Shown: in pieces, positions 1-20,646 of the stretch
Layout of the letters: every line of letters starts with the position of its first letter
Numbering within the stretch: position 1 is the stretch's first letter
Sequence record: LC483177.1
DNA length: 64,000 nucleotides
Source of the DNA: Klebsiella phage 05F01
Strand: one strand, 5' to 3'
Position numbers and translations under genes: made by a program
Notes under the pieces: generated by a model
Database searches by the model: none
Seen by the model: the letters and a program-made list of their open reading frames with translations, nothing else
What the model was told of the DNA's origin: nothing

Positions 1-459
1 GGTGATATTACTAAGCTTGGTAGTTTCTCTGAGGCAGACCCACTTGAGTTTGATATGGAAGGTCCTGTTGTATTTAACTTATATACTCAGTATGGTTATT
101 GGGGACGTAATCAAGGTAAGCGTGACCTTAACTATGATGCTATCTATAATGCACTTTCAGCAATGGCAGAACGTATGCATGATTTTGACAAAGGAGACCA
201 AGAACGCCATGTAGTAGGACTACCAAAAATTGGTGCTGGGTACGCGGGTGGAGATTGGGATATCATTGAACTGATTATTAAGAAAACTCTATGTGCGCAA
301 GGTATCGATGTTATTATCTATGTCCTTACAGAAGAAGAGATTCCAAGTAACATGCAGAAATTAATTACCTGTATGCAAGAAACTCTTGGTTGCTCGCGTC
401 ATGAGGCAAAGAGCCTTATCTATCGTCAAGTTTATAGTATGGATGGTGGTAATGTATAA
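1..459 (+). CDS. Macro-domain protein (C-terminal part; gene begins upstream of the window), possibly a PARG/DUF2263-like ADP-ribose hydrolase
   Basis: Frame 1 is open from nt 1. The motif VGLPKIGAGYAGGDWDII resembles the macro-domain glycine-rich loop (GxG[YF]xG) and the bacterial PARG LGAWGCGVFGND segment. The upstream part is consistent with the macro fold. Confidence 0.45.
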   Translation, partial: GDITKLGSFSEADPLEFDMEGPVVFNLYTQYGYWGRNQGKRDLNYDAIYNALSAMAERMHDFDKGDQERHVVGLPKIGAGYAGGDWDIIELIIKKTLCAQGIDVIIYVLTEEEIPSNMQKLITCMQETLGCSRHEAKSLIYRQVYSMDGGNV

Positions 460-484
460 ATTCCCTGCTTCTGTTATCAAGAAT

Positions 485-1261
485 ATGAAGGACAAGTATC
501 CTCTTCATGCCGAAGCTACTATTGAGGTTGCCCTACGGGGCTTCCTTGAGTATATAGAATTAGTGAAATTGTATGGTGAAGTGCCTATGTTCTCTAAATC
601 GGTAGATGATGTTTGGCATTTTATGATCCTTGATACAAAGGAGTATCAGAAATTTTGTGAAGAACGTTTAGGATATTTCTTGCATCATGTTCCTACAGGA
701 GAAGGGGACAAGACCCAGGAAGAAGAAAATAAAGCACTTCGTCTTTTATGGATGAGAGCCTGTAAACTTAGAGGATTTAACCCTTTTTCATATAGTCCTT
801 ATGAGTGCCCTGACTTATTTTATGCAGACAAAGTACTACATTCTACTTCTATTTCAACAATCAACTTGGTTGGGGAAGTGACATATGCTAAAGCATCAGT
901 AGAAAATAGAGAAAAAGGTTTGTTTTCAGTTTTTCGTAAAAAAGATACATCTGATTATACTAAGGCGTTAAAAGATAAGTATGACTCATATGGTAAGGAA
1001 GTGTATGACCCCAATACTGATCTTATGCTGCAAACACTAGTTGTGTCTAGTATTTTTGATAGTTCTGGTAACGTAAAGGAAGATGTAAAGAAAGAAACTA
1101 TAATTTCATCTGATCCTCTTGACATCTATTCCAGTTCATATTACGATACACCTACATCGAACAACCACCACACGCATAGTTGTAGTAGTTGTTCAACTAG
1201 TTCATGTTCAAGTAGCAGTTGCTCTTCAAGTAGTTGTTCGAGTAGTAGTTGCTCTAGTTAA
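485..1261 (+). CDS. Hypothetical protein with a C-terminal tandem (S-S-S-S-C)n Ser/Cys tail
   Basis: ORF in the 386..1261 frame, with the start moved to ATG 485 to avoid overlapping the upstream gene. The C-terminus HHTHSCSSCSTSSCSSSSCSSSSCSSSSCSS is encoded by AGT/AGC-TGT/TGC repeats. Confidence 0.5.
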   Translation: MKDKYPLHAEATIEVALRGFLEYIELVKLYGEVPMFSKSVDDVWHFMILDTKEYQKFCEERLGYFLHHVPTGEGDKTQEEENKALRLLWMRACKLRGFNPFSYSPYECPDLFYADKVLHSTSISTINLVGEVTYAKASVENREKGLFSVFRKKDTSDYTKALKDKYDSYGKEVYDPNTDLMLQTLVVSSIFDSSGNVKEDVKKETIISSDPLDIYSSSYYDTPTSNNHHTHSCSSCSTSSCSSSSCSSSSCSSSSCSS

Positions 1262-1271
1262 GGGAGATATT

Positions 1272-1709
1272 ATGAGTATTGTTACACAAATGAAAGCTGA
1301 TCGCATTGTGGCACGAGTTTCTGATAAAGGTACTTTTGCACTTCTTACTAATATTATTGGTGAGTATGACCTTGCTCGCACTCAAAAAGCTAATTTGAGT
1401 AAGTCAGAAGACGATGTTATGACTAAAGTTGTTAAGGTAGGTATTTCACATGCCAAGGAACAGCTATCTTCATTACAAAAAGTAGGTGCACCACAATCAC
1501 AGATTGAACGTGCCATGCGAGATATTGTAGTTCTTGAAAATTACCTCCCAGAAATGTTAAGTGAAGAGGACTTACGTGATATTGCAGAGAACTCTAAACT
1601 TTTGGGATGGAAAATGCCAGATATGATGAGACATCTTCGAGAGGGGTTTCCTAATTGTTATGATGGTGATCTTGCTGTAAAAATCGCAAAAGAGGTGTTA
1701 GATAAATGA
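1272..1709 (+). CDS. GatB/YqeY domain protein
   Basis: RBS GGGAGA precedes ATG 1272. Motifs LENYLPEMLSEEDLRDI and MPDMMRHLREGFPNCYDGDLAVKIAKEVL match the YqeY/GatB C-terminal domain signature (EYLP..LSEEEL..; GKVMG-like tail). Confidence 0.6.
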   Translation: MSIVTQMKADRIVARVSDKGTFALLTNIIGEYDLARTQKANLSKSEDDVMTKVVKVGISHAKEQLSSLQKVGAPQSQIERAMRDIVVLENYLPEMLSEEDLRDIAENSKLLGWKMPDMMRHLREGFPNCYDGDLAVKIAKEVLDK

Positions 1710-2608
1710 AACTTAAAGACTTACTTGTAAAGTATTCTGATGACGTTGACCATCTACTTGACAAGATTAAAAATATCTGGGATAGTGACGTAGAATTCAT
1801 AACTCAAGACAATAGTGGTGAAGTTTGTTTTTGGAGGAATGTTAATTTATATCATGAATCTAAAGATAAAGGCTGGTTTAGTGAGGAAGGTGATTCTCTG
1901 GTTATATATGAATTCCTCTTTAACGGTGAGGTTGCAGATGATTATGAGACAGCAGTAATTAAAAAAGAGGATTATTTAAACATGGTAAATAAAAAAGATA
2001 TTTATAAACTTGCATTCTATACTAATACAATTACAAAGGATCAGCTGCAAAAACTTTATGATATTTTACATGACAATGGTGTAGATACCTACTTTGAATC
2101 AGCAGAAGCACATGCATCAAGTAGTAATATCTTTAGTAAAGACGATCATACTATTTTTCTATGTGGTGATGTTGGTATTGAAGGGGGTAGACACAATGCT
2201 AATCTGCGAGAGATTGTCTCTTATGAGGAATTTTATTCTTTACTAAAAGAGAAACACCCGTTGGTAAAAGAAAAATCACCATCTCCACGTTTCCATAAGA
2301 AGCGAATCCCTGTTCCTGTTCGCAAGAAGGTGGATGTTGTTGTAAAATATAAAGATGGGTCTAGATATTGCTTTAAAGATGTAGTATACTGGAATGCTAC
2401 CGAAAACTCCTTCTATGTTAAAGAACGTAAAGTGGTTTCAGAAGGCATTGAGTCATCTATTGGTACATACATTGATAAAAAATATATCCAATCAGTTAAT
2501 ATCAAAGAGATTGGTGGATCTGTGAACATTGTCAGTGTAACGGATTTCTGGTATTACGGAGACTCAAGTAAGTTTTTCGGTGAAGGACTCTTCTCAAAAT
2601 CTTACTAA
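1706..2608 (+). CDS. Hypothetical protein
   Basis: 300-aa ORF with an ATGA overlap onto the upstream gene. A terminator follows it. Confidence 0.5.
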   Translation: MKLKDLLVKYSDDVDHLLDKIKNIWDSDVEFITQDNSGEVCFWRNVNLYHESKDKGWFSEEGDSLVIYEFLFNGEVADDYETAVIKKEDYLNMVNKKDIYKLAFYTNTITKDQLQKLYDILHDNGVDTYFESAEAHASSSNIFSKDDHTIFLCGDVGIEGGRHNANLREIVSYEEFYSLLKEKHPLVKEKSPSPRFHKKRIPVPVRKKVDVVVKYKDGSRYCFKDVVYWNATENSFYVKERKVVSEGIESSIGTYIDKKYIQSVNIKEIGGSVNIVSVTDFWYYGDSSKFFGEGLFSKSY

Positions 2609-2611
2609 TAT

Positions 2612-2637
2612 AAGCCCCTTTTGGGGCTTTATTTTTA
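2612..2637 (+). terminator. Rho-independent terminator (AAGCCCCTT-TTGGGGCTT hairpin plus T-run)
   Basis: Perfect GC-rich inverted repeat followed by TTTATTTTTAT. Confidence 0.7.
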
Positions 2638-2647
2638 TCTAAAGTAG

Positions 2648-2677
2648 TTGACATAGTATGTAGGGTAAGATAAAGTG
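2648..2677 (+). promoter_or_regulatory. Sigma70-like early promoter (TTGACA -35, TAAAGT/TAAGAT-like -10)
   Basis: A consensus TTGACA sits immediately downstream of the terminator. An A/T-rich -10 is about 17 bp downstream. The same architecture recurs at 13606 and 27187. Confidence 0.5.
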
Positions 2678-2702
2678 TATTCATGAAAACAAATGAGGAA
2701 AC

Positions 2703-3365
2703 ATGATGACTATCAAACATATCTCTTTCGATGTATGGAATACCTTAATCACTGCCAATAAGGGGTATGCTTTAGAGCGTTCTCAGGTGATATCTTACTT
2801 TGCAGGTATTTCCACTAAAGAAGCAGCAGAAGCTTATGCACTTGTTAAAATGTCACTTGATATGGACGCTTCTCTTGGTATCTGTAATGGTGTAAGTCAT
2901 GCATGGTATGAACTAGGTAAGTTTTTGGGAGTAGATAGGTCAACAGCAGATAAAATCAGAACGCACTGTGAGAAAGCTTTTATTGCAAACCCACCTCACC
3001 TTGATAAATCTCTGGTTGACGAGTTATCTGCTCTTAGTAATAAACATGAGTTGAGTATTAAAAGTAATACCAACTTTATTTCAGGAGAGGTATTATCTGA
3101 GACTTTGGGTTTTTATGAGATGCCGTGGTGGAGCTTCACCCACTTCTCGGATGATTATGGTTGGTGCAAACCAGATCCACTATTCTTCCAATGGACACAG
3201 GTTTGTAGTGATATTCAAGGTATTCGTGCAGAAGAAATTTTACATGTAGGTGATAGTGAAATTTTTGATGGCAAATGTGTTGACATTGGATTTAACTTCT
3301 GTAAAATTGATAACCCTGAACACTTACTGAATAAACTTAAAAATGGAGAACTCATTAATGCGTAA
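2703..3365 (+). CDS. HAD-superfamily phosphatase/hydrolase-like protein
   Basis: RBS GAGGAAA. N-terminal ISFDVWNTLI resembles HAD motif I (DxDxT variant). C-terminal HVGDSEIFDGK resembles HAD motif IV (GDxxxD). Confidence 0.5.
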   Translation: MMTIKHISFDVWNTLITANKGYALERSQVISYFAGISTKEAAEAYALVKMSLDMDASLGICNGVSHAWYELGKFLGVDRSTADKIRTHCEKAFIANPPHLDKSLVDELSALSNKHELSIKSNTNFISGEVLSETLGFYEMPWWSFTHFSDDYGWCKPDPLFFQWTQVCSDIQGIRAEEILHVGDSEIFDGKCVDIGFNFCKIDNPEHLLNKLKNGELINA

Positions 3366-4185
3366 AACAACTCAATTCTTTGCACACAATTTTTCATCTC
3401 TGGCTGATGCAGGTTTTTCTACAGATGACTACTCCAAACTTAAATTTGGTAGTAATCAGTCAGCAAAGCGTTTGGGTTATGAATTAGCAGATAGGTTCTT
3501 TATTACTAAATGTGCTGATAAGTTTAATGAGCGATTCGTGGTAATTCCTTCACCATACAATCATGTTCACAATGCAGCAACAGAAATGTCTAATCATTTT
3601 GTAAACCGATTGAATTATCTATTCTCATGCAATAAGTATAAGAATAGTGTGGAGTGGGATATTATTCACCGTAAAGTCAGTTATATCAATGATTATGGTT
3701 TCTTGAGCAAAGAGGATCGTAAATCACTTATTGATGGGGATAGCTTCTACCTCAATAAAGAATTCTGGAGTGGAAAGACACTTATTTTTATTGATGATGT
3801 CAACATTACTGGTACCCATGAAGATAAGCTAGTAGACATTCTTAACGAAAATGAAGTAGAAAATGACACTTATTTTCTTTACTTTGCAAAATACACAGGG
3901 ACCGAGGCTAATACCGAAGCTGCATTAAACTTCAGCTATATCCATAGTGTAGAGAAGTTTATTGAGATGATTAAGGAAGAACATGATGCTAAATGTCTGG
4001 TTCGACCAATTAAGTATTTGATGTCTCAACCTGAGATAACATTTAAAGTGGCGATTTCACAATTACCAACCAACTATGTTGAACACTTGTTTTTCGGTTG
4101 CTTGGCAGAAGGCTATGACAAGATTGAAAAATACAATGAGAACTTTGAGTTCTTGAAACATTTCTATGAAAGTAATATCATGTAA
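3358..4185 (+). CDS. Type I phosphoribosyltransferase (PRTase) domain protein
   Basis: TLIFIDDVNITGTHEDK matches the PRPP-binding motif of type I PRTases (hydrophobic-DD-x-x-TG-T). The start was moved to ATG 3358, which is preceded by GGAGA. Confidence 0.55.
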   Translation: MRKTTQFFAHNFSSLADAGFSTDDYSKLKFGSNQSAKRLGYELADRFFITKCADKFNERFVVIPSPYNHVHNAATEMSNHFVNRLNYLFSCNKYKNSVEWDIIHRKVSYINDYGFLSKEDRKSLIDGDSFYLNKEFWSGKTLIFIDDVNITGTHEDKLVDILNENEVENDTYFLYFAKYTGTEANTEAALNFSYIHSVEKFIEMIKEEHDAKCLVRPIKYLMSQPEITFKVAISQLPTNYVEHLFFGCLAEGYDKIEKYNENFEFLKHFYESNIM

Positions 4186-4196
4186 GGAGAGATAAA

Positions 4197-4823
4197 ATGA
4201 GTAAATTTAAAGCAGGTGATGTAGTGGTTCGTATCAATTCCACTCTAGGCGAGTCTAATTACAGCTTAGAAGAAGTGCCTATTGGATATGTGGGTGTTGT
4301 TTATGAAGGGTTCACTGATGATGATTATTTTGATTTTGGTGACAAATTCAAATACACGTATGACGATGAGGATTTTGTGTTAGCAATTTCATCTTCACCA
4401 TTATTGAGTAAGTCAGCTTATGGTGAATTCCTTGAATCAGCACAGGCGATTGCTAAAGTGCAAGGGAAAGCTTGTATTGATGAAATTACAGCTACTATTA
4501 GTAAACTTACTGCTATCCACACATATGTTGACGATGTAATTGCTGAGTTGGAAAAAATTAAAGATGAAGTATCTAAGGTTGAAAAATTCACATCAGAGCA
4601 ACTTGAAATTCTTTCAGCTTCTGTAAAAATCACCAAGTTAGTGGGTGAATACTATCGTGATGGTAAAAGTGAACCTCTGTTCTTGAATGGTAGTGGTAAG
4701 ATTCGTCCTCCTATGAACACTCAACTGCCAACAGATACATTTAGTATTGATGAAGTAGAAGGGACATTGGCTGGTATTTCTTTAGATAAAGAAGCTATCC
4801 TCACTTTGCTGCGTAGTTTTTAA
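4197..4823 (+). CDS. Hypothetical protein
   Basis: 208-aa ORF with RBS AAGGAGAG. A terminator follows it. Confidence 0.5.
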   Translation: MSKFKAGDVVVRINSTLGESNYSLEEVPIGYVGVVYEGFTDDDYFDFGDKFKYTYDDEDFVLAISSSPLLSKSAYGEFLESAQAIAKVQGKACIDEITATISKLTAIHTYVDDVIAELEKIKDEVSKVEKFTSEQLEILSASVKITKLVGEYYRDGKSEPLFLNGSGKIRPPMNTQLPTDTFSIDEVEGTLAGISLDKEAILTLLRSF

Positions 4824-4826
4824 ATA

Positions 4827-4851
4827 AAGGGGCGCAAGCCCCTTATTTTTA
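4827..4851 (+). terminator. Rho-independent terminator (AAGGGGCGCAAGCCCCTT plus T-run)
   Basis: GC-rich stem with a GCAA loop and TATTTTT. Confidence 0.7.
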
Positions 4852-4860
4852 GGGTACAAT

Positions 4861-5202
4861 ATGTCAGACTTCAGTTATGTAAAGATGGTTAAAGCAAATA
4901 AAGTCCATAGATGTTGTGAATGTAGGGGTAAAATACATAAATCAGATAAGTATGAAAAATCTTTTATTGTTCAGGATGGTGATGTAAGTGAATATAAAGT
5001 ATGTAAACACTGCTGTGAGTCTCGTGATTGGTTATTAGACCATACAGACTGGAACCATGATATTGATGGAGAAGGGCATTCTTTTTATTACACAATGCTA
5101 CGAGAACATCTGAAGGAGCAAGCCACATATGGTAATAAAGATCTATCTTTTGCTTGCTATAGACATATCGTGAGAATGGACCAAAGGAGAAAAAATGAAT
5201 AA
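4861..5202 (+). CDS. Small Cys-rich zinc-ribbon protein
   Basis: Four CxxC-like pairs (CCECRG, CKHCCE). Confidence 0.45.
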   Translation: MSDFSYVKMVKANKVHRCCECRGKIHKSDKYEKSFIVQDGDVSEYKVCKHCCESRDWLLDHTDWNHDIDGEGHSFYYTMLREHLKEQATYGNKDLSFACYRHIVRMDQRRKNE

Positions 5203-5333
5203 ACTATATTGGATACTCCTTATTTTGTCATACATCATGTTGAGTTATAATACAATTGAGTCATCTATATTTGGTTCAATGATTCTTATATCTGCAAATA
5301 CAATAGTATTTTATGATTGCAAAAGGAGGGAAA

Positions 5334-6614
5334 ATGTCAGAAAGTAAAATGTTGATTATGTTCGATTCTAAGAATAACAACAATAAATATTATGAAGCTA
5401 CATTAGATGATGCAGGAAATATCTCTGTTCGTTATGGGCGTGTTGGTGGTGGTGCTCAAACCACATCATATTCTGGTGGTAAACGTAAATTTGATAGCCT
5501 CATCTCCTCTAAAATTAAGAAAGGGTATAAAGAGGCACAACTTGAAGTGGTGAGCAGTGATACCGGATTAGTTAAACGTGGTAACGTTGTTGATGTTGCA
5601 CTGAAGCAGATTGATACTCAAGATGATATGAGTCGTGCTTTAATTCAGACCATCGCTAAAGCAAATATTCATAACATCACAAGCAGCACTAACATTAAAT
5701 ATGATGAAAAAGATGGCTTGTTTAAGACTCCTCTTGGAGTAGTTAAGAAGGAGGCTGTAGAAGAAGCAACTGCTTTACTGAGTAAGATCGAAGTTCATTT
5801 ACCTGCTTACTTAAATGATGGGAGTATGGAAGCAGAAATCTCTTCCCTAAATGACTCTTATTTTGTGCTTATTCCAAATAAGGTAAATACTACACGAGAT
5901 AAACGTTTTCTTCTCTTTAGTCAGAAAAATATTGATGTTCAAAAATCTGTATGTAAGGCACTATTGGAGACACTAGACCTTATTGAAGATCTTAAAAACA
6001 ATACAAATGAAGAAGAAAAAGTTGAAGTAGAGAAGATCTTTAACTTAGAAATCTCTCATGTAGAAGATGCCCAAACTATTGACCGTATTGTAAAATACTA
6101 CAATGAGAGTAAAAACTCCGATCATGGTGGTAGAATTATGGGGAGTCGTGTTAAAAACATTTACAAGATTAATCTGGGTAATCAGCAACAGCCTTTTGAG
6201 GAAGCTAAAGAGAAGTATGGGAACGTCCATGAGTTCTGGCATGGCACACGTGTAGCTAACCTCCTCTCTATCTTCTGTAAAGGACTTATGATGCCTAAAG
6301 AGAGTCCTGGAGCTAAGGCTGGTGCAATGTTTGGTTATGGAATTTACTTTGCTAACCAAAGTTCAAAAAGTATTAACTATTGTGACGGAATGTACTGGAC
6401 AGGTGGAAGTAACAGTGGTAAAGTTTACATGTTCCTTGCTTCTGTGGCTGTAGGTAAAGCGTATACGCCACCTCATTCTACACAAAGTAATCCACCAAAA
6501 GGTTATGATAGCTATTGGGCTAAAGCAGGTAAGTCTGGTGTTAGAAACGATGAGATCATTGTCTTTGACTTGAGTCAAGTTAGACTTGATTATTTACTCG
6601 AAATTGAAATCTAA
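5334..6614 (+). CDS. PARP-like ADP-ribosyltransferase with an N-terminal WGR domain
   Basis: RBS AGGAGGG precedes ATG 5334. WGR-like KYYEATLDDAGNISVRYGRVGGGAQTTSYSGGKRKF..KKGY. Catalytic-domain motifs are present: FWHGTR (H-G-S/T), GYGIYFANQSSKSINYC (Y-F-A...SKS) and NDEIIVFDLSQVRLDYLLEIEI (catalytic Glu). These correspond to the PARP1 H-Y-E signature. Confidence 0.75.
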   Translation: MSESKMLIMFDSKNNNNKYYEATLDDAGNISVRYGRVGGGAQTTSYSGGKRKFDSLISSKIKKGYKEAQLEVVSSDTGLVKRGNVVDVALKQIDTQDDMSRALIQTIAKANIHNITSSTNIKYDEKDGLFKTPLGVVKKEAVEEATALLSKIEVHLPAYLNDGSMEAEISSLNDSYFVLIPNKVNTTRDKRFLLFSQKNIDVQKSVCKALLETLDLIEDLKNNTNEEEKVEVEKIFNLEISHVEDAQTIDRIVKYYNESKNSDHGGRIMGSRVKNIYKINLGNQQQPFEEAKEKYGNVHEFWHGTRVANLLSIFCKGLMMPKESPGAKAGAMFGYGIYFANQSSKSINYCDGMYWTGGSNSGKVYMFLASVAVGKAYTPPHSTQSNPPKGYDSYWAKAGKSGVRNDEIIVFDLSQVRLDYLLEIEI

Positions 6615-6630
6615 TTAAGGGGAAGGTTTT

Positions 6631-7560
6631 ATGAAGAAGATAGTCTCTGAGAATGGTATGGTGACAAAATACCTCCATAATAATGGAACAGAAACATCCT
6701 TTAAGAAACAGTTATCAGGTAGCTACGTAGATTCACTAGTTAAGCCTGATTTTAAAGATAAGAAAAAGTATAGCTTAGTTTTGTCATGTTCTCATGGATG
6801 TCAGTTATCTTGTTCATTTTGCCACTTAACTCAAAATGGTAAACCTTTCAATAAGATCAACACTGAAGATGTTATTGAAAATATTAAAGAGGTCATTACT
6901 GATCAAATTAATGAAGATCCTTCACTGAAAAGTAAGTATATAAAATTTTGCTGGCTGGGGGAAGGTGAACCATTACTTAATTATGAGATGATTAAGCGTG
7001 CTACTATTGAAGTGCTATTTTGGGTATTAGAAAACAAATATGCTCTTGGTTTGGATGGAGTTGACATTTCAACTTCAATGCCAAGGGTCAAGAAAGAAAC
7101 AATAAAGGATCTTAAATGGTTCAATAAATATCTTTCTGTATTCAATAAAAACCCAAACAACAAAGATAAAACAGCACTAAGATTATTTTATTCTTTACAT
7201 GCAGTAGATAATGACATTAGGTCTAAAATGATGCCAAAAACCATTCATATTAATGATGCTGTGAAATGCATGAAGGAAGTTGGTGATGAATTTGGAATTG
7301 ACACAATTTTCCATTATACATGGATAGAAGGTAAGAATGATTCAGATGATGATGTAGATAATCTTATTAAGTTTTGGAATGAGAACTCTCTACAGAAAAG
7401 TCAACTTCGTGTCTTAAGGTACAATAGTGGGACTAATCTAGATGAAGAAAGTGAAAATCTTGGTAAGATAATTTCAAAATTAAAGAAATTCATTCCAAAT
7501 CTGAAAGTTCAACATTCAGCAGGAAAAGAGGTCCAATCTTCTTGTGGTATGTTCAACTAA
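6631..7560 (+). CDS. Radical SAM enzyme, RlmN/Cfr-like
   Basis: SCSHGCQLSCSFCHLTQNG contains the CxxxCxxC radical-SAM cluster in an RlmN/Cfr-type context (GCxLxCxFCxTxQxG). WLGEGEPLLNYEM matches the RlmN GMGEPLLN motif. Confidence 0.55.
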   Translation: MKKIVSENGMVTKYLHNNGTETSFKKQLSGSYVDSLVKPDFKDKKKYSLVLSCSHGCQLSCSFCHLTQNGKPFNKINTEDVIENIKEVITDQINEDPSLKSKYIKFCWLGEGEPLLNYEMIKRATIEVLFWVLENKYALGLDGVDISTSMPRVKKETIKDLKWFNKYLSVFNKNPNNKDKTALRLFYSLHAVDNDIRSKMMPKTIHINDAVKCMKEVGDEFGIDTIFHYTWIEGKNDSDDDVDNLIKFWNENSLQKSQLRVLRYNSGTNLDEESENLGKIISKLKKFIPNLKVQHSAGKEVQSSCGMFN

Positions 7561-7613
7561 TCTTGATTAAGATCATTATAAAAAGTGATGGAATACGTTA
7601 AAATAATAAGACA

Positions 7614-7640
7614 CAAGCCGGAATTTTCCGGCTTTATTTC
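7614..7640 (+). terminator. Rho-independent terminator (AAGCCGGAATTTTCCGGCTT plus T-run)
   Basis: Perfect inverted repeat followed by TATTTC. Confidence 0.65.
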
Positions 7641-7654
7641 ATTATGGAGGATAA

Positions 7655-9769
7655 GTGAAAAAAGTTATTAAGCGTGATGGCAGAAAAGAAAATTATGATG
7701 AAGGCAAGATTTATCAGGCAGTGTATCAGGCTGCAAATAGTATCAACCTACTATCATTAACTTGTGAAGAAATTGCTAATGATGTTGCAGAGCACATTTC
7801 AAATAAAGTAAAGAATAGAGATGAATTAAAAATAAAAGATATTGAGTCTCTGGTAGAAAATTATCTTATGTCAAAGAATAAGACCAGAGATGTGGCAAGA
7901 AAGTATATTGAATATCGTCATGATAGAGATAGTGCAAGAGAATCTGGCGGAAAACTCTATAATGATTTGTTAGGTTTTCTTGACCAAAGCAATGAAGAGT
8001 TCACGAGAGAGAATGCCAATAAACCAAGTACCCTCGTAAACACCCACAGAGACCTCTTAGCGGGTATTTTAAGTAAACACATAGCAACCACACAGATTCT
8101 CCCTAAAAACCTCTCAGAATGGCATAGAGAAGGTTGGGGACACATTCATGACTTAGATTATTTAGTTAGTCCTCTCACGAATTGTTGTTTGGTTAACTAT
8201 CGTGATATGTTAGAGAATGGATTTAAGATTGGTAATGCTCAAATTGAAAAACCCAAGTCAATTGGTGTAGCTACTACAGTGCTTACTCAAATCATTCAAG
8301 CTGTAGCATCTAGTCAATATGGTGGACAAACTTGTGCTCATATTGATTCAGGATTGAAACAGTATGTAGAACTCTCTTTCAATAAGAATGTAAAACTTAT
8401 TAGGAACTTGTTTGGTGCTGAAATAAAAACAAACGCTATGCAACTCACCGAACAAGATGTATATGATGCAATGCAGACGCTTATCTATCAAGTCAATACC
8501 TTAATGAGTGTAAATGGTCAATCTCCTTTTATTACTATCAGTCTGGGACTAGATACCTCAGAATTTGGTAGAATGATCACCAGGAATTATTTACAGATCC
8601 ATAAAGAAGGGTTAGGGGTTGATAAAGTCACTCCCGTATTCCCTAAAGTTATCTTCTTCCTTGAAGAAGGTGTTAATATGAATCCAGGTGACCCTAATTA
8701 TGATTTAAAACAATTGGCACTGGAGTGTTGTTCTGAACGTATTTATCCAGATTTTATTTCAGTTCCTCGTAATAAGATGGTAACTAATTCTTCTGATGGA
8801 CATGTAACCAGCATGGGATGCAGGTCGTTCCTTTCTTACTATGCTACTGAGCAAGGTGAGAAATATGATGGGAGATTTAATCTTGGTGTTGTCTCTGTCA
8901 ATCTTCCTATGATTGCCAAAGATTGTGTAGTAAATGGGAAGCTCTTCATTGAAGAACTCTATAAGCACATGAGGAACGCCTTTGATGCCCATATGGTGAG
9001 GATTAATCGGTTAAAAGGAACAAAAGCAAAACAAAATCCTGTCTTGTTCATGGAAGGTGCATTATCACGTCTGGATGCAGAAGATACTATTGACAAACTT
9101 TTCTATAAAGGATATGCTTCAGCTAGCTTTGGCTATGTTGGGTTATATGAAGCTGTTCAGATTTTGTATCCTAATACATCTCTAGAAGAGTATCGAGAAA
9201 AAGGATCTTTTATTCTTGATCGAATGCAGAGTATGTCAGATGAATATAAAAATAAGACTAATATTAGCTTCAGTCTTTATGGTACCCCTGCTGAAAGCTT
9301 GTGTTACAAATTTGCATCTCAACTTAATGATAAGTTCCCTGGAACATTAGAAAAAGATTATTTAACAAACTCTTTTCATGTCCCTGTTGATGTAGCTGTT
9401 AACCCATTCACTAAATGGGAAATTGAATCTGGATTTGACATTTTAAGTAGTGGTGGGAATATCGGGTATGTTGAGACACCTAATCTAAAAGGGAATATGA
9501 AAGCACTAGAGACGCTTGTTGACTTTGGTTATAGTAATATACATTACTTTGGTATCAATCAGCCAATTGATAAGTGCTTTAAATGTGGGTTCAGTGGTGA
9601 GTTTAAAGCCACACAAGATGGATTTAGTTGTCCTGAATGTGGTAACTCAGATGAAGAAACTATCAGTGTGATTCGTCGTGTTAGTGGATACTTATCTAGT
9701 CCTAATAGTAGACCTTTTAACAAAGGGAAGATGCAAGAAGTTGTCCAACGTGTGAAACACACTAGTTGA
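7655..9769 (+). CDS. nrdD: Anaerobic ribonucleoside-triphosphate reductase (class III RNR)
   Basis: GTG start after GGAGGA. N-terminal ATP-cone KRDGRKENYDEGKI. Extensive colinear similarity to E. coli NrdD (GNAQIEKPKS, DPNYDLKQLALEC, TSMGCRSF, the C-terminal Zn ribbon CFKCGF..CPECGN and the glycyl-radical motif RRVSGYL). Confidence 0.95.
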   Translation: MKKVIKRDGRKENYDEGKIYQAVYQAANSINLLSLTCEEIANDVAEHISNKVKNRDELKIKDIESLVENYLMSKNKTRDVARKYIEYRHDRDSARESGGKLYNDLLGFLDQSNEEFTRENANKPSTLVNTHRDLLAGILSKHIATTQILPKNLSEWHREGWGHIHDLDYLVSPLTNCCLVNYRDMLENGFKIGNAQIEKPKSIGVATTVLTQIIQAVASSQYGGQTCAHIDSGLKQYVELSFNKNVKLIRNLFGAEIKTNAMQLTEQDVYDAMQTLIYQVNTLMSVNGQSPFITISLGLDTSEFGRMITRNYLQIHKEGLGVDKVTPVFPKVIFFLEEGVNMNPGDPNYDLKQLALECCSERIYPDFISVPRNKMVTNSSDGHVTSMGCRSFLSYYATEQGEKYDGRFNLGVVSVNLPMIAKDCVVNGKLFIEELYKHMRNAFDAHMVRINRLKGTKAKQNPVLFMEGALSRLDAEDTIDKLFYKGYASASFGYVGLYEAVQILYPNTSLEEYREKGSFILDRMQSMSDEYKNKTNISFSLYGTPAESLCYKFASQLNDKFPGTLEKDYLTNSFHVPVDVAVNPFTKWEIESGFDILSSGGNIGYVETPNLKGNMKALETLVDFGYSNIHYFGINQPIDKCFKCGFSGEFKATQDGFSCPECGNSDEETISVIRRVSGYLSSPNSRPFNKGKMQEVVQRVKHTS

Positions 9770-9779
9770 GGATATAACA

Positions 9780-9998
9780 ATGAATGATAGATATGAAGTT
9801 AAACAAGTAGATTGTGATGATACAAGTTTAGTTCTTGATAATATAAATGGAAAATACATAGGAATTTATATCAGAGAGTCTGGAATAGGGTACACTAGAA
9901 AGATCATAACTTATGAAGAAGCCCTAAGATTAAATGAATGGTTAAGTTTTCAATTGAAAGGTACTTCATTAGGAGGTAAGAATGGGAGAACGAGTTAA
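9780..9998 (+). CDS. Hypothetical small protein
   Basis: 72-aa ORF immediately after nrdD. Confidence 0.4.
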   Translation: MNDRYEVKQVDCDDTSLVLDNINGKYIGIYIRESGIGYTRKIITYEEALRLNEWLSFQLKGTSLGGKNGRTS

Positions 9999-10116
9999 GG
10001 TAGTGATAGAAAGACGTGGGGACAAATGGTATTCTCTTGGTAAATACTTTAAGCGCTTTGGTCAGTGTAAGAAATATGTCTGGTCAAAGGGATTTAATGG
10101 CGTTAGATTAGATTAA
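9982..10116 (+). CDS. Hypothetical small protein (44 aa), not in the ORF track
   Basis: ATG preceded by a strong RBS AGGAGGTAAGA. Basic peptide MGERVKVVIERRGDKWYSLGKYFKRFGQCKKYVWSKGFNGVRLD. Confidence 0.3.
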   Translation: MGERVKVVIERRGDKWYSLGKYFKRFGQCKKYVWSKGFNGVRLD

Positions 10117-10126
10117 GGAGAGAATA

Positions 10127-10672
10127 ATGAATTATAACTTTAAAGGTAGTCCAGGTAATTGGTTTTATGGGGAGTATGGTGGTGTTGACGGACAGGGCTT
10201 CTTTGTTGGCTCTAATCAGTATTACGACGGCTGCAATTATGTTGCTCGTATAAATGGAACAACAGAAAAACATAAAGCTGATGCAAAACTCATTTCTAAA
10301 TGTCCAGAATTACTTAAAACAATCATTGGAGATAATCACACTCTTCCAGAATTACTAGATTGGGTTGCTGACAGGTTGGTATATGTCTATCATGAGCACC
10401 ATAATGTAGATTTTGTTCAGGAGTTACGGAATAGATCGAAGAAACTTCAAAGTATTCTTGATGAAGTTGTTCATGAAGAGTTGCCAAAGATACTTTCAAG
10501 AGATGAAAAGATAGAGTTCATTAAAATTAGGTACCTCAATAACGAGAATGGTGTTTATTTTTGTAATCAAGATGGTGTCGCTACATATTTTTCACATATG
10601 CATAATATTGTTTTCTCAAGAAAAGAGTGGGAAGATGAAATTTGGCCTAAGTTGCAGCAGGAGGTAAAATGA
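10127..10672 (+). CDS. Hypothetical protein
   Basis: 181-aa ORF with RBS AGGAGAG. Confidence 0.5.
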   Translation: MNYNFKGSPGNWFYGEYGGVDGQGFFVGSNQYYDGCNYVARINGTTEKHKADAKLISKCPELLKTIIGDNHTLPELLDWVADRLVYVYHEHHNVDFVQELRNRSKKLQSILDEVVHEELPKILSRDEKIEFIKIRYLNNENGVYFCNQDGVATYFSHMHNIVFSRKEWEDEIWPKLQQEVK

Positions 10673-10827
10673 ATGCATACAAAGAGATCATTGAGGCATT
10701 AGAGTGGTATTTAGGCGATGGCGTAAACCCACTGAGTTCAGACTGTATATATGAAATTATTAATCAAGAGCACGACCCTATTGAAACAATAGCAAAAGCT
10801 CTGGATTATTATAGGGAAAATAAATGA
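10669..10827 (+). CDS. Hypothetical small protein (52 aa), not in the ORF track
   Basis: It is translationally coupled by ATGA overlaps at both ends, with the upstream ORF and with nrdG. It fills an otherwise non-coding 150-nt gap. Confidence 0.35.
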   Translation: MNAYKEIIEALEWYLGDGVNPLSSDCIYEIINQEHDPIETIAKALDYYRENK

Positions 10828-11312
10828 ACTACGCAGGGTACATTTTTGGTGACCTTGTGAATGGAGAGGGAGCTAGATGTTCCCTTTTTGTTTCTGGTTG
10901 CTCAAGAGGTTGTGAAGGGTGCTTTAACAAAGAGACTTGGGATTATTCCTATGGTTCTGTGTATACAAAAGAAACACAAGAAATGATTCTAAGAGATTTA
11001 TCAAAAGGTTACATCTCAGGACTGAGTATCTTAGGAGGTAATCCTTTAGAGAGAAAGAATTTTGATGTAGTGTACAACTTATGTGAAGAAGTTAAAAACA
11101 CATTTACAAACAAAGACATATGGATTTGGTGTGGTCAAACTTTTGAAGAAATCTCAAATGATAGTAAATTTAGTAAGATATTGCCCTTGACAGATGTTTT
11201 GGTGGATGGTAAATTTATCCCATCGAAAGCGAATCCTTCCTTGAAGTGGAGAGGTTCAAGTAATCAGAACATTTGGGTTAAGAGGGATGAAGAGTGGATT
11301 ATTCAACATTAA
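10824..11312 (+). CDS. nrdG: Anaerobic ribonucleotide reductase activating protein (radical SAM)
   Basis: Near-colinear with E. coli NrdG: DIVNGEGARCSLFVSGCSRGCEGCFNK, DIWIWCGQTFEE, VLVDGKFIPSKANPSLKWRGSSNQ. Confidence 0.95.
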   Translation: MNYAGYIFGDLVNGEGARCSLFVSGCSRGCEGCFNKETWDYSYGSVYTKETQEMILRDLSKGYISGLSILGGNPLERKNFDVVYNLCEEVKNTFTNKDIWIWCGQTFEEISNDSKFSKILPLTDVLVDGKFIPSKANPSLKWRGSSNQNIWVKRDEEWIIQH

Positions 11313-11695
11313 GTGACCTTGAGATTGCTATCTTAGTAGGGAAACACTTTCCAGATGAGGTTATTGTTTCAGAAGATTATGCATACAAGTTAATTCCTTG
11401 TGCGGCATCTGCATATACAGGTATTGACTATGAAGAGGTTGATTTTGACCCTTGCAATAATGTTTATGATGCATGGAAGGTCATTGTTGAGAACCGGATT
11501 TTTATTGGCCCTATTTTTGTTAGTGATTGGTGTGCAACATCTGAATGTGATAGCTATCGTAGTATTAATAAAAACCCACTCAGGGCTGCTATGATTGTGT
11601 TCATTATGATGAAGGAAAGTGAGACAATTTCTAAATGTATGTTAGATAATCTCAAAAACACAGCTAAACATGAGGATTTCAATACTTATGAATAG
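11294..11695 (+). CDS. Hypothetical protein
   Basis: 133-aa ORF with an apparent GTG start overlapping the nrdG 3' end. The start is uncertain. Confidence 0.4.
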   Translation: MDYSTLSDLEIAILVGKHFPDEVIVSEDYAYKLIPCAASAYTGIDYEEVDFDPCNNVYDAWKVIVENRIFIGPIFVSDWCATSECDSYRSINKNPLRAAMIVFIMMKESETISKCMLDNLKNTAKHEDFNTYE

Positions 11696-12050
11696 CTCTT
11701 ACGACCTCATGGTAGATATTGATGGTAAGTTTTATGAATTTGATTTCGTAGAACAATTTATTCCTTATGGAAATAAAAGGTATCTGCACATTCCTTCACA
11801 TGGATACTTTGAATTAAAAAAGATGAAGAATCCACCTGCAAGTGAATGGTTGAAAATAATGAATAAAATAATTGAGTCAGGTATTCCTTGTGCTGTATGT
11901 GATTGTATTGCATACACTAAAGAATATATTGACTTCTTTGTAGCGCATACTGAAAAATTTATCCGTATGTTTTACACTGAAGAAGCGGGTAAGGTTAATT
12001 TTACTAATGTCGTCTTTATTGATGGACCAACTGAGTGGGGTAAAAGTTAA
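11670..12050 (+). CDS. Hypothetical protein
   Basis: 126-aa ORF. Confidence 0.45.
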   Translation: MRISILMNSSYDLMVDIDGKFYEFDFVEQFIPYGNKRYLHIPSHGYFELKKMKNPPASEWLKIMNKIIESGIPCAVCDCIAYTKEYIDFFVAHTEKFIRMFYTEEAGKVNFTNVVFIDGPTEWGKS

Positions 12051-12377
12051 ATGAAAGTAATTGTTAAAGAGTACATAGTAAAACCTGGTGACACTTTGTC
12101 AGGTATTGCTAAAGAACTGTATGGAGACTCGTCTACTTATCTCGATATAGCTGAGGTGAATAAAATTGAGAATACAAATCTTATTTTCCCTGGACAAGTG
12201 CTTAAACTACCTTATCCGGCAACAGATAAAAACTTTACCTTAGTTACAATTAAGCCTACAAGAGAGGCATTGGACAGAATCTCTAGTCTATTTTCACCAG
12301 GTTTCTGTGATGGAAGAATGGAGTATGCAATTTATGCAGCAGCTCTGGGAGTAGAAGAGCAATCTTACAATACATAA
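12051..12377 (+). CDS. LysM domain protein
   Basis: VKPGDTLSGIAKELYGD...IAEVNKIENTNLIFPGQVLKLP is a canonical LysM peptidoglycan-binding motif. Confidence 0.75.
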   Translation: MKVIVKEYIVKPGDTLSGIAKELYGDSSTYLDIAEVNKIENTNLIFPGQVLKLPYPATDKNFTLVTIKPTREALDRISSLFSPGFCDGRMEYAIYAAALGVEEQSYNT

Positions 12378-12434
12378 GAACTGAAGAATAGCCTGCTGTG
12401 GGATCGGGAGTCTTTTACTGGCAGTAAAAATACG

Positions 12435-12462
12435 TTGACATCATAGAAATTGTATGTAGAAT
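12435..12462 (+). promoter_or_regulatory. Sigma70-like promoter (TTGACA-16-TAGAAT)
   Basis: Consensus -35 and a near-consensus -10, upstream of the TerC-like gene. Confidence 0.55.
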
Positions 12463-12470
12463 ATTTATCA

Positions 12471-12492
12471 AGAAGGGGGATGTCCCTCCTTC
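12471..12492 (+). promoter_or_regulatory. 5'-leader hairpin (AGAAGGGGGA / TCCCTCCTTC) between the promoter and RBS of the TerC-like gene
   Basis: Imperfect inverted repeat in which a SD-like arm pairs with an anti-SD-like arm. A possible mRNA stability or attenuation element. Confidence 0.3.
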
Positions 12493-12510
12493 ATAAACAG
12501 AGGAAAATAA

Positions 12511-13575
12511 ATGAACACTTTTATGAAATTTTACAAATGGCCCACATTCTTCTTTGTGTTGGCACTTTTAGCAGGGGCATGGATTGGCTTCGTTGAGGCT
12601 GGTGTAAGTGGAATGTTAAGTAGTGTATTGGCTGTTGGTATTCTGTGTATTCTTGAAATCTCACTGTCATTTGACAATGCGGTATTGAATGCTAAAAAAC
12701 TTCAAGATATGGAACAAAAATGGCGTGATTGGTTTATTAAGTGGGGGATGCTGATCGCCGTTTTCGGAATGCGCTTGGTTCTTCCTATCCTTATCGTATC
12801 TGTCTTAGGTGGAATGGCTCCGTGGACTGCTGTAAGCTTAGGTCTACATGACCCAGCTAAGTATGCAGAGGTGTTGCAAAGTAGCCACCATATTGTAGCT
12901 AGCTTTGGTGGTGCGTTCCTGATGATGGTTGCTCTTGAGTTCTTCCTTGATCATGAAAAAGATGTTCACTGGATGAAATGGATTGAATATCCTGTTAGTC
13001 ATATTGGTAAAGTGGGTATTGTTGCAGAAGCTTTCATTACACTTCTTATGATTATTGGAGCAAGTTTTGGTGCTCATGGAGATGATCAAGTGATGTTTAT
13101 TATCTCAGGTGTATGTGGTATCCTGCTCTTTGTGGGTATTCATTTCCTGAAAGAGTATCTTGAATCGAAGGATGAAGAGAAAGCAGCGGCATCTGTTGGT
13201 GCAGTAGTTAAATCAGGATTGGCTGGTGTTCTCTACCTAGAAGTTCTGGATGCATCTATGTCTTTTGATGGCCTGATTGCTGCATTTGCGATTACACAAT
13301 ATTTTCTTGTGATTATGTTAGGTTTGGGTGTTGGTGCCTTCTTTGTCCGAGAAATGACACTGCATGTTCTTGATAGTGGACATCTTGCTGAATTCCGTTA
13401 CCTTGAACATGGTGCTTTCTATGCTATCTTTTCTCTGGCTAGCATCATGCTCCTAAACTTCTTCTTTGAAGTCCCAGAAGTTGTCACCGGATTGATTGGT
13501 GTAGCATTCCTTACAGCAGCAGTGTGGCATAGTCATATCCTTAATAAACGTGAAGAGTCTCTTGTTACAAGTTGA
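12511..13575 (+). CDS. TerC-family (DUF475-like) integral membrane protein
   Basis: Multiple TM helices. LEISLSFDNAVLNA matches the TerC-family E-x-SLS-x-DN hallmark. A second DASMSFDG repeat shows the internal duplication typical of TerC. Confidence 0.6.
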   Translation: MNTFMKFYKWPTFFFVLALLAGAWIGFVEAGVSGMLSSVLAVGILCILEISLSFDNAVLNAKKLQDMEQKWRDWFIKWGMLIAVFGMRLVLPILIVSVLGGMAPWTAVSLGLHDPAKYAEVLQSSHHIVASFGGAFLMMVALEFFLDHEKDVHWMKWIEYPVSHIGKVGIVAEAFITLLMIIGASFGAHGDDQVMFIISGVCGILLFVGIHFLKEYLESKDEEKAAASVGAVVKSGLAGVLYLEVLDASMSFDGLIAAFAITQYFLVIMLGLGVGAFFVREMTLHVLDSGHLAEFRYLEHGAFYAIFSLASIMLLNFFFEVPEVVTGLIGVAFLTAAVWHSHILNKREESLVTS

Positions 13576-13576
13576 T

Positions 13577-13606
13577 AAAAAGCCCCGAAAGGGGCTTTAT
13601 TTTTAT
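13577..13606 (+). terminator. Rho-independent terminator (AAAAGCCCCGAAAGGGGCTTT plus T-run)
   Basis: GC-rich hairpin with a GAAA loop followed by ATTTTTATT. Confidence 0.75.
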
Positions 13607-13634
13607 TGACAGAATATCACTGGTAAGATAAGAT
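13606..13634 (+). promoter_or_regulatory. Sigma70-like promoter (TTGACA-17-TAAGAT)
   Basis: Exact TTGACA and a 17-bp spacer. The same -10 TAAGAT occurs at 27210. Confidence 0.6.
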
Positions 13635-13659
13635 GTATCTATCAAATGAAGAGGAGAAA

Positions 13660-14220
13660 ATGATGAACGTAACTAAAGATATGATTGATGCTTGGGTTAA
13701 GGATGCACCTGAATGGGCGGTAGGGATTGTTAAACGTGAAAGTAAACACGAACATAACAACTGTGCTTATGCATATGTAGGTGAAAAATTTGGGTATCAA
13801 TATATACTTTTTTCAAATGACGTATATCTTGACTATGTAGGTAAAAAATTTGCTTTTCAGGAATTTCAAACAGATGGTGATTCCTTCAAATATGAAGTGC
13901 TAGCGAAAACACATCAAGAACCTGTTGTTGGTGAAGATGTATTGGTCCACTTTGATGGAGATAATTCTAGTGTTTGGACGAAGTTTAAATTAGAATACCA
14001 GAAAGGTGACGTTGTTGTTCTATATGACTATCGTATTGAAGATGTAGAGACTTACAGATTTTCTCGTATCACAATGAAGAAATATGTTAAAACTGTAAGA
14101 GAAAATGCTATTGACCAGATTGCAAGTTTAATTGGTCGTGGGACTTTTGCAGAAGATGCTGAAGCAATCTATGATGCAATCAAGAGTAATGAGATCTCAA
14201 TTTTTACAGAGGAGAAATAA
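13660..14220 (+). CDS. Hypothetical protein
   Basis: The start was moved to ATG 13660, which is preceded by GAGGAGAAA. Confidence 0.45.
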   Translation: MMNVTKDMIDAWVKDAPEWAVGIVKRESKHEHNNCAYAYVGEKFGYQYILFSNDVYLDYVGKKFAFQEFQTDGDSFKYEVLAKTHQEPVVGEDVLVHFDGDNSSVWTKFKLEYQKGDVVVLYDYRIEDVETYRFSRITMKKYVKTVRENAIDQIASLIGRGTFAEDAEAIYDAIKSNEISIFTEEK

Positions 14221-14221
14221 A

Positions 14222-14656: not shown

Positions 14657-14657
14657 T

Positions 14658-15818: not shown

Positions 15819-15825
15819 GGTGACA

Positions 15826-16974: not shown

Positions 16975-16980
16975 GGTAGT

Positions 16981-18036: not shown

Positions 18037-18230
18037 TGAAAACTATTACATTGACACCACTAGAACTCATTACTATCATGGAAGATGCTTTTATTGATGG
18101 GTGGAATAAAGCAGAACAAAATGAATGGTGGGACCCAAAATTGTTCTTAGAACTTTATAAAGAGGAAGGTGATTCATCAGAAACCACAACTGCAATAGAA
18201 GATATTAAGGAGGAATACAATGTCTCGTAA
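18036..18230 (+). CDS. Hypothetical small acidic protein
   Basis: 64-aa ORF with an ATGA overlap. Confidence 0.35.
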   Translation: MKTITLTPLELITIMEDAFIDGWNKAEQNEWWDPKLFLELYKEEGDSSETTTAIEDIKEEYNVS

Positions 18231-20010: not shown

Positions 20011-20038
20011 TAATTTAAATAAATAAGGAGATATAAAC

Positions 20039-20638: not shown

Positions 20639-20646
20639 GTAGGTAG

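Follow-up and report, generated by a model that had tools for sequence, protein, structure and literature searches.

A phage-encoded PARP with WGR, helical and ADP-ribosyltransferase domains in Klebsiella phage 05F01, related to a distinct class of fungal PARPs

Introduction

Human PARP1, PARP2 and PARP3 bind DNA breaks through a WGR domain, and their helical domain (HD) blocks the access of nicotinamide adenine dinucleotide (NAD+) until it is unfolded by DNA binding; PARP2 and PARP3 require 5'-phosphorylated ends (PMC10789625). Here we analyze a gene for a protein of this kind, located at positions 5334..6614 on the plus strand of a 64,000-nucleotide stretch of Klebsiella phage 05F01 (LC483177.1), which is called the window below. 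The protein shares the core of WGR, HD and ADP-ribosyltransferase (ART) domains with human PARP2 and PARP3, which have the closest WGR profile and the same conserved DNA contacts, at about 21% identity in structural alignment. Unlike them, it has no disordered N-terminal extension and carries YGR instead of WGR. HPF1 is not known from bacteria. Human PARP1 is the best match for the HD and ART domains, with the H-Y-E triad and the SKS and GIYFA motifs common to both, but its three zinc fingers and BRCT domain are absent from the phage protein.

The PARPs of Herpetosiphon (H. aurantiacus; HaPARP) and C. difficile (CdPARP) have a WGR-(HD)-ART organization with an H-Y-E triad, and form poly(ADP-ribose) (PAR) in vitro (PMC8120803, PMC4245714). 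HaPARP requires DNA, and each of the two enzymes is paired with its own PARG, which reverses PARylation (PMC8120803). By description they are similar to the phage protein, but no PARG was found among the open reading frames (ORFs) scanned in the window. PARP homologues in phages were noted by bioinformatics in 2005 (Aeh1; PMC1266365), 2014 (Aeh1 and phi4:1; PMC4245714) and 2021 (XacN1; PMC7824862). In Aeh1, the catalytic domain is part of a fusion with a coat-like region (PMC1266365), and neither Aeromonas phage Aeh1 nor Cellulophaga phi4:1 was among the tblastn matches of the window PARP. The Xanthomonas jumbo phage XacN1 (BBA65562.1) and its relatives encode proteins with the same full-length architecture at 33-37% identity; they differ from the window phage in being jumbo phages of other bacteria, and in XacN1 a vWA gene directly follows. 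The T4 proteins Alt, ModA and ModB are also phage-encoded NAD+-dependent protein modifiers and are used in host takeover (PMC8120803, PMC7824862), but they are mono-ADP-ribosyltransferases of the R-S-E (cholera-toxin) type without WGR or HD, on another branch of the superfamily (PMC8120803).

The closest phage proteins are gp111 of vB_KpM_FBKp34 (QQV91759.1), annotated as 'poly [ADP-ribose] polymerase' in a record whose note names WGR, regulatory and catalytic domains, and the KP13-16 orthologue (UYL04435.1), annotated as 'hypothetical protein'. Both are 78-80% identical to the window PARP over the full length, and in both, as in the window, the gene lies upstream of nrdD, nrdG and TerC/Alx; the immediate neighbours differ, the window having a Cys-rich ORF and a radical-SAM gene. 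The FBKp34 paper never mentions the PARP gene. The window PARP is therefore not new in kind: an orthologue has been annotated, and phage PARPs have been noted since 2005. With a relative already annotated as a PARP, the identity of the gene comes as no surprise.

A further relative comes from yeast. Pyl1 of Y. lipolytica auto-PARylates and PARylates Ku70/80, and its PAR chains were verified by digestion with PARG and phosphodiesterase and by matrix-assisted laser desorption/ionization (PMC12412787). The yeast proteins were described as a 'distinct class' with a 'sparse distribution', and the paper mentions neither phages nor horizontal transfer and proposes no origin (PMC12412787). The Pyl1-class proteins can be aligned with the phage PARP from one end to the other, through the WGR domain, the two halves of the helical region and the ART domain, and they have the H-Y-E triad (H470-Y505-E576 in Pyl1). 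In contrast to the phage protein, the Yarrowia proteins contain a low-complexity/coiled-coil insert of ~160-200 residues in the helical region and are reported to lack PARP_reg; Pyl1 is also a eukaryotic enzyme, whose targets are Ku70/80 and telomere-related.

Results

An intact PARP gene with a conserved active site

The ORF containing the gene (5313..6614, plus strand) is longer than the chosen coding sequence. We placed the start at 5334 rather than at 5313 because a strong ribosome-binding site (RBS) is present there and public gene calls yield an identical protein; the ATG at 5313, which has no RBS, was rejected. One public gene call (P0001), obtained from two independently assembled contigs, is 100% identical to the 426-residue product. 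The gene and its parts are as follows.

5323..5329, plus strand: Shine-Dalgarno sequence AAGGAGG, read from the sequence, with 4 nt between its end and the ATG at 5334
5334..6614, plus strand: PARP coding sequence, 426 residues and stop codon (ORF list, Pfam, PHROG and PDB matches)
5334..5549, plus strand: WGR domain (Pfam WGR) spanning residues 1-72, in which the WGR motif takes the form YGRVG and the motif NNNNKYY is present
5586..6005, plus strand: helical regulatory domain (HD/PARP_reg), residues ~85-224 (Pfam, phmmer, model)
6045..6611, plus strand: ART (PARP catalytic) domain, residues ~238-426 (Pfam, Foldseek)
6240..6242, plus strand: codon of His303, the triad His, aligned to PARP1 H862 and invariant in 57/57 relatives
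6345..6347, plus strand: codon of Tyr338, the triad Tyr, aligned to PARP1 Y896 and invariant in 57/57 relatives
6552..6554, plus strand: codon of Glu407, the catalytic Glu, aligned to PARP1 E988 and invariant in 57/57 relatives

The initial annotation of this locus, made from the sequence alone, had proposed a PARP-like protein with a WGR domain, and this is borne out by Pfam, the PDB matches and the structural model. The motifs it quoted (RYGRVGGGAQTTSYSGGKRKF, KKGY, FWHGTR, GYGIYFANQSSKSINYC and NDEIIVFDLSQVRLDYLL) all occur in the translation. Pfam PARP (PF00644) matched residues 249-397 with E = 3.8e-26 (92.3 bits; cut-off 26.7), and Pfam WGR (PF05406) matched residues 6-69 with E = 1.1e-7 (32.3 bits; cut-off 22). 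A match far beyond chance confirms that 5334..6614 is a genuine PARP gene. Although the WGR and PARP modules had both been recognized correctly, the proposed two-module plan did not hold, as a third domain, the autoinhibitory HD, lies between them and had been overlooked. Pfam PARP_reg (PF02877) covers residues 103-224 (E = 4.5e-6), only just above its gathering cut-off, and is present in most relatives of the phage PARP. The protein also matched PHROG 23333 ('polymerase') with E = 3.4e-57. A phmmer search against PDB sequences gave human PARP1 as the best match (E = 2.7e-21), followed by PARP3, PARP4 and PARP2, the PARP2 match including the WGR domain; the alignment to the PARP1 HD begins at residue 122. 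No NCBIfam model matched the protein, and no PADLOC family matched it at E ≤ 1e-3.

The phmmer alignments pair WHGTR with WHGSR of PARP1, GIYFA with GIYFA and the C-terminal strand NDEIIVFD with YNEYIVYD. Because of these pairings, H303, Y338 and E407 correspond to PARP1 H862, Y896 and E988, so that the intact H-Y-E triad claimed earlier is indeed present; the correspondence is based on sequence alignment together with the fold match. Conservation was counted in an alignment of 57 relatives with 41-80% identity. H303, G304, T305, Y338, F339, K345 (PARP1 K903), S346, Y349 (PARP1 Y907) and E407 are invariant in all 57, which directly supports a conserved active site.

An AlphaFold2 model built from the alignment of relatives was confident (mean predicted local distance difference test (pLDDT) score 85.5, predicted template modeling score 0.75). 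Its three modules are well defined, and the linkers between them (residues 75-81 and 225-231) have low confidence. The WGR domain is modelled as a sheet of four strands with a helix and a final strand (pLDDT ~90), the HD as a five-helix bundle (residues 85-92, 98-117, 139-162, 166-179 and 197-224), and the ART domain as an α/β fold (residues ~238-426). A Foldseek search of the PDB placed human PARP1 WGR-HD-ART on a DNA double-strand break at the top (8g0h_D, E = 4e-26; 4dqy_C), with whole-chain template modeling (TM) scores of 0.66-0.67 to multi-domain PARP1 chains, and the PARP2-DNA complexes 7aeo and 6x0l next. The model thus matches the WGR-HD-ART chains of both PARP1 and PARP2 (probability 1.00, TM ≤ 0.67), and its ART domain matches PARP1 catalytic domains, also with a probability of 1.00. 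The domain identity of the protein is therefore directly supported by both sequence and predicted structure.

The WGR domain resembles a DNA-break sensor

As a single sequence, the WGR domain found no real match in the PDB, so that a family profile was needed. A profile of 23 WGR sequences of the family matched the WGR domains of PARP3 (E = 6.7e-8, the best match) and PARP2 (E = 2e-7), and matched that of PARP1 weakly (E = 0.02-0.16).

The break contacts of PARP2, defined by WGR-DNA crystal structures and mutants, are N127, N128, N129, K130, Y132, W151, R153, Q159, K179, K183 and Y201 (PMC6294510). W151 stacks on the 5'-end ribose, the R153A mutant is inactive, and Y201 is the 5'-phosphate sensor, the Y201F mutant losing DNA activation (PMC6294510). 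In the phage family, N15, N17, K18, Y20, R36, K60 and Y65, the equivalents of PARP2 contacts, are each invariant in 57/57 relatives. N15, N17, K18, Y20 and R36 correspond to PARP2 N127, N129, K130, Y132 and R153. Position 34, equivalent to W151, is aromatic in 56/57 (Tyr in 41, Phe in 11, Trp in 4), and Q42 is kept in 40/57. K60 and Y65 are the probable equivalents of K179/K183 and Y201, an indel in this region leaving no unambiguous alignment. Conservation of the WGR contacts is thus directly supported, and judged by these residues, the phage WGR looks like a working DNA-break sensor.

The gene is resident in a phage genome and under purifying selection

The G+C content of the PARP gene (36.7%) is close to that of the window (35.7%). 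Its G+C content at third codon positions (0.29) lies inside the range of nine other genes, and its relative synonymous codon usage correlates with that of the same nine genes at r = 0.89 (control range 0.76-0.91). The ratio of nonsynonymous to synonymous substitution rates (dN/dS) against the two closest orthologues, those of FBKp34 and KP13-16, is 0.07-0.09, with synonymous sites saturated; between these two orthologues it is 0.14, with dS = 0.30. The gene is therefore resident, intact and under purifying selection.

The phage itself is a new relative of the Stephanstirmvirinae (phi92-like lytic myoviruses), with only patches of DNA-level match to known Klebsiella and Escherichia phages, and the PARP is an accessory gene of this Stephanstirmvirinae-type phage. 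The gene order PARP, nrdD, nrdG, NinX, TerC/Alx is common to the window, FBKp34 and KP13-16. The surroundings are genes of nucleotide and DNA metabolism (nrdD, nrdG, SprT-like, primase-helicase) in an early/middle region.

Distribution and phylogeny

By tblastn, a PARP of this family was found in 9 of 50,697 phage records. The closest matches were FBKp34 (80% identity) and KP13-16 (78%); the jumbo phages XacN1 and Xoo-sp13, and also CM1 and RAS14 (Stenotrophomonas), matched at 33-37%. The further matches were two uncultured megaphages and Bacillus phage YungSlug, the last in the catalytic domain only. An exhaustive phmmer search over 1.84 billion cluster representatives gave 338 matches at E ≤ 1e-30, and the best 150 of these 338 are nearly all compact full-length proteins of 400-450 residues. 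Pattern-based scans, whose counts are lower bounds, found at least 41 PARP loci in IMG/VR, many on contigs of 150-440 kb, and at least 11 in 185,579 bacterial species genomes. The bacterial loci were in Sulfurovum, Thioploca, Omnitrophota, Armatimonadota and Myxococcota, on a Paracoccus plasmid and on a Pseudomonas serbica megaplasmid. Where the genomic context was checked, it was phage-like for the window, P0016, P0035 and the 286-kb contig carrying P0097, bacterial chromosomal for P0050 and P0071, and eukaryote-like for P0049. The initial annotation had called the architecture rare in phages and typical of eukaryotes. The rarity is real, but the second part does not stand, as the family is mostly phage and bacterial with the fungi nested inside it.

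The closest named homologues of the phage PARP are fungal. The Yarrowia sp. B02 homologue is 56.5% identical over 418 aligned columns, and those of Smittium and Hesseltinella are 49-52% identical over ~418 columns, vs 29% over 276 columns for human PARP1. Neighbour-joining trees were calculated from 418-419 trimmed columns and rooted on human PARP1 HD-ART. The whole phage, bacterial and fungal family forms one clade far from PARP1. Within it, the fungal Pyl1-class clade, comprising Yarrowia, Trichomonascus, Smittium, Coemansia, Dipsacomyces, Hesseltinella and three further sequences, is monophyletic in 200/200 and 100/100 bootstraps (including P0031, P0034, P0041-P0048 and P0058). It is nested in the phage/bacterial diversity in 192/200 bootstraps, and in 100/100 once 28 more distant representatives were included. 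In 75/100 replicates, the sister group of the fungal clade is the window's phage clade; the latter consists mostly of metagenomic sequences, with the genomic context verified for four. The window PARP is placed in this sister clade, outside the fungal one, and so belongs to the same family but a different clade. The nesting, obtained from distance trees with a single long outgroup branch, suggests horizontal transfer from the phage/bacterial family into fungi, the direction being read from the nesting alone.

Neighbouring genes and the search for a partner

The immediate surroundings of the PARP gene contain the following features.

4827..4844, plus strand: terminator-like intergenic hairpin upstream of the gene, with a 7-pair stem including five G-C pairs and a T-run
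4861..5202, plus strand: Cys-rich ORF of 113 residues (CxxC ... CxxCC), PHROG 28814, directly upstream of the PARP gene
6631..7560, plus strand: radical-SAM protein of 309 residues, RlmN/Cfr-like, beginning 17 nt past the PARP stop codon
7615..7634, plus strand: terminator-like hairpin downstream, between the radical-SAM gene and nrdD, with an 8-pair stem including five G-C pairs and a T-run

The two hairpins may bracket a unit (4861..7560) of the Cys-rich ORF, the PARP gene and the radical-SAM gene; such hairpins are consensus matches, and their overall count in the window is not above chance. A sigma-70 promoter scan of the window gave 26 sites vs 32.5 expected, which is likewise not above chance. 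A hydrophobic ORF of 50 residues (5195..5347, plus strand), which has an RBS (AAAGGAG) of its own, shares 14 nt with the start of the PARP gene and is absent from the public contig annotation.

Homologues of the Cys-rich ORF were found in 15 phage records (Klebsiella siphophages, Serratia phage Parlo), none of which has a PARP. The radical-SAM protein matched TIGR00048 (RlmN/Cfr RNA methyltransferase) weakly (E = 2.5e-17, far under the cut-off); its phage homologues, at ~25% identity, are mostly from jumbo phages, and the gene does not co-occur with PARP. A functional link between the PARP and either gene was rejected, because neither accompanies PARP in other phages.

Recurrent neighbours were sought in 56 loci by clustering the ORFs located up to ~6 kb from PARP. 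A single family, of ~220 residues and without a Pfam or PADLOC match, qualifies as a candidate conserved partner of PARP; it stands beside divergent PARPs in 8 loci and is absent from the window.

L015, L016, L018, L020, L021, L022, L025 (viral) and L055 (Omnitrophota): ~220-residue family, mostly directly downstream of PARP, and a few kb away in L022

In 4 viral loci from IMG/VR (L026, L027, L038 and L051), PARP adjoins a gene for an ATP-dependent DNA ligase (PF01068, E = 5e-11) whose N-terminal ~90 residues have no assignment; this fits a link to DNA-end metabolism. Furthermore, rIIA/rIIB were near PARP in 6 loci, GMP reductase in 5 and a vWA gene in 4. None of these genes adjoins PARP in the window, and so they were rejected as partners there and are leads only.

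In 5 loci, among them those of the window and FBKp34, PARP has a macrodomain-like gene in its vicinity.

1..459, plus strand, partial (full at L002:4512-5132): DarG-like macrodomain gene, 207 residues, ~5 kb upstream of PARP

Its product matched PADLOC DarG (E = 2e-9) and NCBIfam antitoxin_DarG (E = 9.5e-8), with Pfam Macro at 20.6 bits, under the cut-off of 22; homologues usually bear the annotation 'phosphatase'. A possible role is that of an ADP-ribose eraser, such as one acting against DNA ADP-ribosylation of the DarT type. By tblastn, the gene is present in 2,989 phage records, including the PARP-less phAPEC8, ESCO13 and Av-05 of the same subfamily. Because PARP is found in 9 records, the DarG-like gene is not PARP-specific, and a dedicated PARP-macrodomain module of writer and eraser was rejected.

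No PARG, ARH, NADAR or NAD-salvage gene was found among the plus-strand ORFs of at least 90 residues in ~55..30,650, and there was no PARG among the recurrent neighbours in the 56 loci. Enterobacteria are not known to have a PARG. Because no partner, eraser or NAD gene was found, the PARP behaves as a stand-alone accessory gene.

Several other genes of this region were noted. On the contig with the identical PARP (L002:1-3561), a Gad2-family protein (PF26128) and a UvrD-like helicase are encoded ~6-10 kb upstream of PARP; we take the Gad2 family to be anti-Gabija. On the plus strand of the window there is a Ter-type stress set, consisting of TerC/DUF475 (12511-13575), TelA (16981-18036), a vWA-TerF-like gene (19201-20010) and TerD (20039-20638), which resembles the Ter-linked systems that make a nucleoside-like metabolite. 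The same strand encodes a HAD hydrolase (2703-3365), a ComF-like PRTase_3 (3343-4185) and a SprT-like protein (14658-15236). Two adjacent putative glycosyltransferase genes (23493..25128, plus strand) come just before those of the primase-helicase and DNA polymerase A; for one the match is weak and to a TET-associated glycosyltransferase, for the other it is Glyco_trans_1-like, and the pair may hint at DNA base hypermodification.

Discussion

Considering the domain plan, the active site and the WGR contacts together, we propose that the phage protein is an active enzyme of the DNA-dependent type with a minimal WGR-HD-ART organization, which would be activated by DNA breaks and form chains. The chances for and against this full proposal seem to us evenly balanced. 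The WGR domain would bind DNA at a nick or an end, which probably carries a 5'-phosphate, and the binding would be relayed to the HD, which would free the NAD+ pocket. The H303-Y338-E407 site would then move ADP-ribose from NAD+ to the enzyme itself, to proteins close by and/or to DNA ends, with chains as the most likely form. In the infected cell, DNA ends or the proteins working there may thereby be marked, shielded or regulated. Break activation, chain formation and the role at DNA ends are what we infer from the conserved features, and they differ in strength: for DNA-dependent activation the balance tips slightly in favour, and poly-activity, judged by analogy with relatives, is somewhat more likely than not.

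Several points weigh against this proposal. Pyl1 was active in vitro without added DNA (PMC12412787), so DNA dependence is not guaranteed in the family. The score of the regulatory domain is marginal (27.2 vs 26.8 bits), and Y65 is equated with PARP2 Y201 by its position, as both directly precede the last WGR strand. The position of PARP1 Y986 is an invariant Asn in the phage PARP family, and PARP3, despite its WGR-HD-ART plan, mono-ADP-ribosylates only (PMC10789625); that PARP3 and PARP2 are the closest by WGR profile is a point against chain synthesis. We found neither a conserved partner of the window PARP nor an eraser or target gene, and our literature search revealed no functional study of any phage PARP.

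The initial annotation had taken the retained catalytic Glu as a sign of poly- rather than mono-ADP-ribosylation, which is too strong on its own in view of PARP3. A break-activated mono-ADP-ribosyltransferase of the PARP3 kind, placing single units on proteins or on DNA 5'-phosphate ends, is consistent with the shared domain plan, the PARP3 WGR as the best PDB match of the family profile, and the invariant Asn. PARP4, another PDB match, is named a mono-ADP-ribosyltransferase there, and modification of DNA by PARP2 has also been described (PMC8190142). Better support for chains is offered by the homology to the Pyl1 class, the closest characterized relatives, whose PAR chains were verified. The equivalents of PARP1 K903, M890 and E988 are also conserved (K345 in 57/57, M332 in 54/57 and E407 in 57/57), the first two being residues that we take to belong to the acceptor or elongation site, and the 'MFG' motif of the PARP1/2 type is kept in the loop before GIYFA. 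We regard mono-activity as unlikely, though far from negligible. Much the same holds for a DNA-independent transferase of host takeover, acting like T4 Alt, ModA and ModB but with PAR on host RNA polymerase or translation factors, with the WGR as a tether only. It has been suggested for the jumbo-phage PARPs (PMC7824862), and it agrees with the DNA-independent activity of Pyl1 in vitro and with the early/middle location of the gene. However, the invariant PARP2-type break contacts and the autoinhibitory HD argue for a regulated, DNA-coupled activity, and nothing points to a host target, so that we give this explanation a low probability as well.

A role mainly in NAD+ consumption, or in countering or mimicking NAD-dependent immunity (Thoeris, Sir2-type or DarTG-like), is a further alternative; the initial annotation had raised the immunity idea beside a possible modification of host or phage DNA-associated proteins. 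The protein would be expected to use NAD+, and both the Gad2-like anti-defence gene ~9 kb upstream on the same phage contig and the DarG-like macrodomain gene ~5 kb upstream might be seen in its favour. However, the PARP has no PADLOC match, no defence or anti-defence partner recurs over the 56 loci, the DarG-like gene is not linked to PARP (2,989 vs 9 phage records), and NAD+ depletion would presumably harm the phage itself. Nothing in our analysis supports an immunity role, and we consider it improbable. Finally, the fungal affinity of the closest named homologues could raise the suspicion of eukaryotic contamination, an assembly artefact or an inactive relic. This is refuted by the synteny with FBKp34 and KP13-16 (PARP, nrdD, nrdG, TerC), the phage-like G+C content and codon usage, the dN/dS of 0.07-0.14 and the fully intact catalytic residues; two independent sequencing runs yielded the gene, which lies within a phage contig. 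Such an origin is hardly credible.

Our proposal of a break-activated, chain-forming phage enzyme can be joined with the phylogeny: in infected enterobacteria, the phage WGR-HD-ART protein would sense 5'-phosphorylated nicks or ends and PARylate itself, end-processing proteins or DNA ends, and so govern what becomes of phage or host DNA ends, and the Pyl1 class, acting on Ku at telomeres, would be derived by horizontal transfer from the same phage/bacterial family. This combined statement is tentative, and we hold it to be rather doubtful as a whole. The position of the fungal PARPs inside a phage/bacterial family nevertheless makes a horizontal-transfer origin of the Pyl1 class testable.

Whether PAR signalling takes place in bacterial cells is still an open question (PMC4245714, PMC8120803). 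The gene described here is a practical entry point to phage PARPs because it is compact, intact and under selection and has cultured sister phages on a tractable host. Its value lies in offering a clean candidate with which functional studies of phage PARPs could begin, and the phage-fungus relation adds interest. Functional work would show whether a break sensor of the PARP2/3 style operates during infection, and what its targets are. If both the proposed activity at DNA ends and the phage or bacterial derivation of the Pyl1 class are true, the phage enzyme and the fungal enzyme of chromosome ends would be closely related and serve similar functions at DNA ends.

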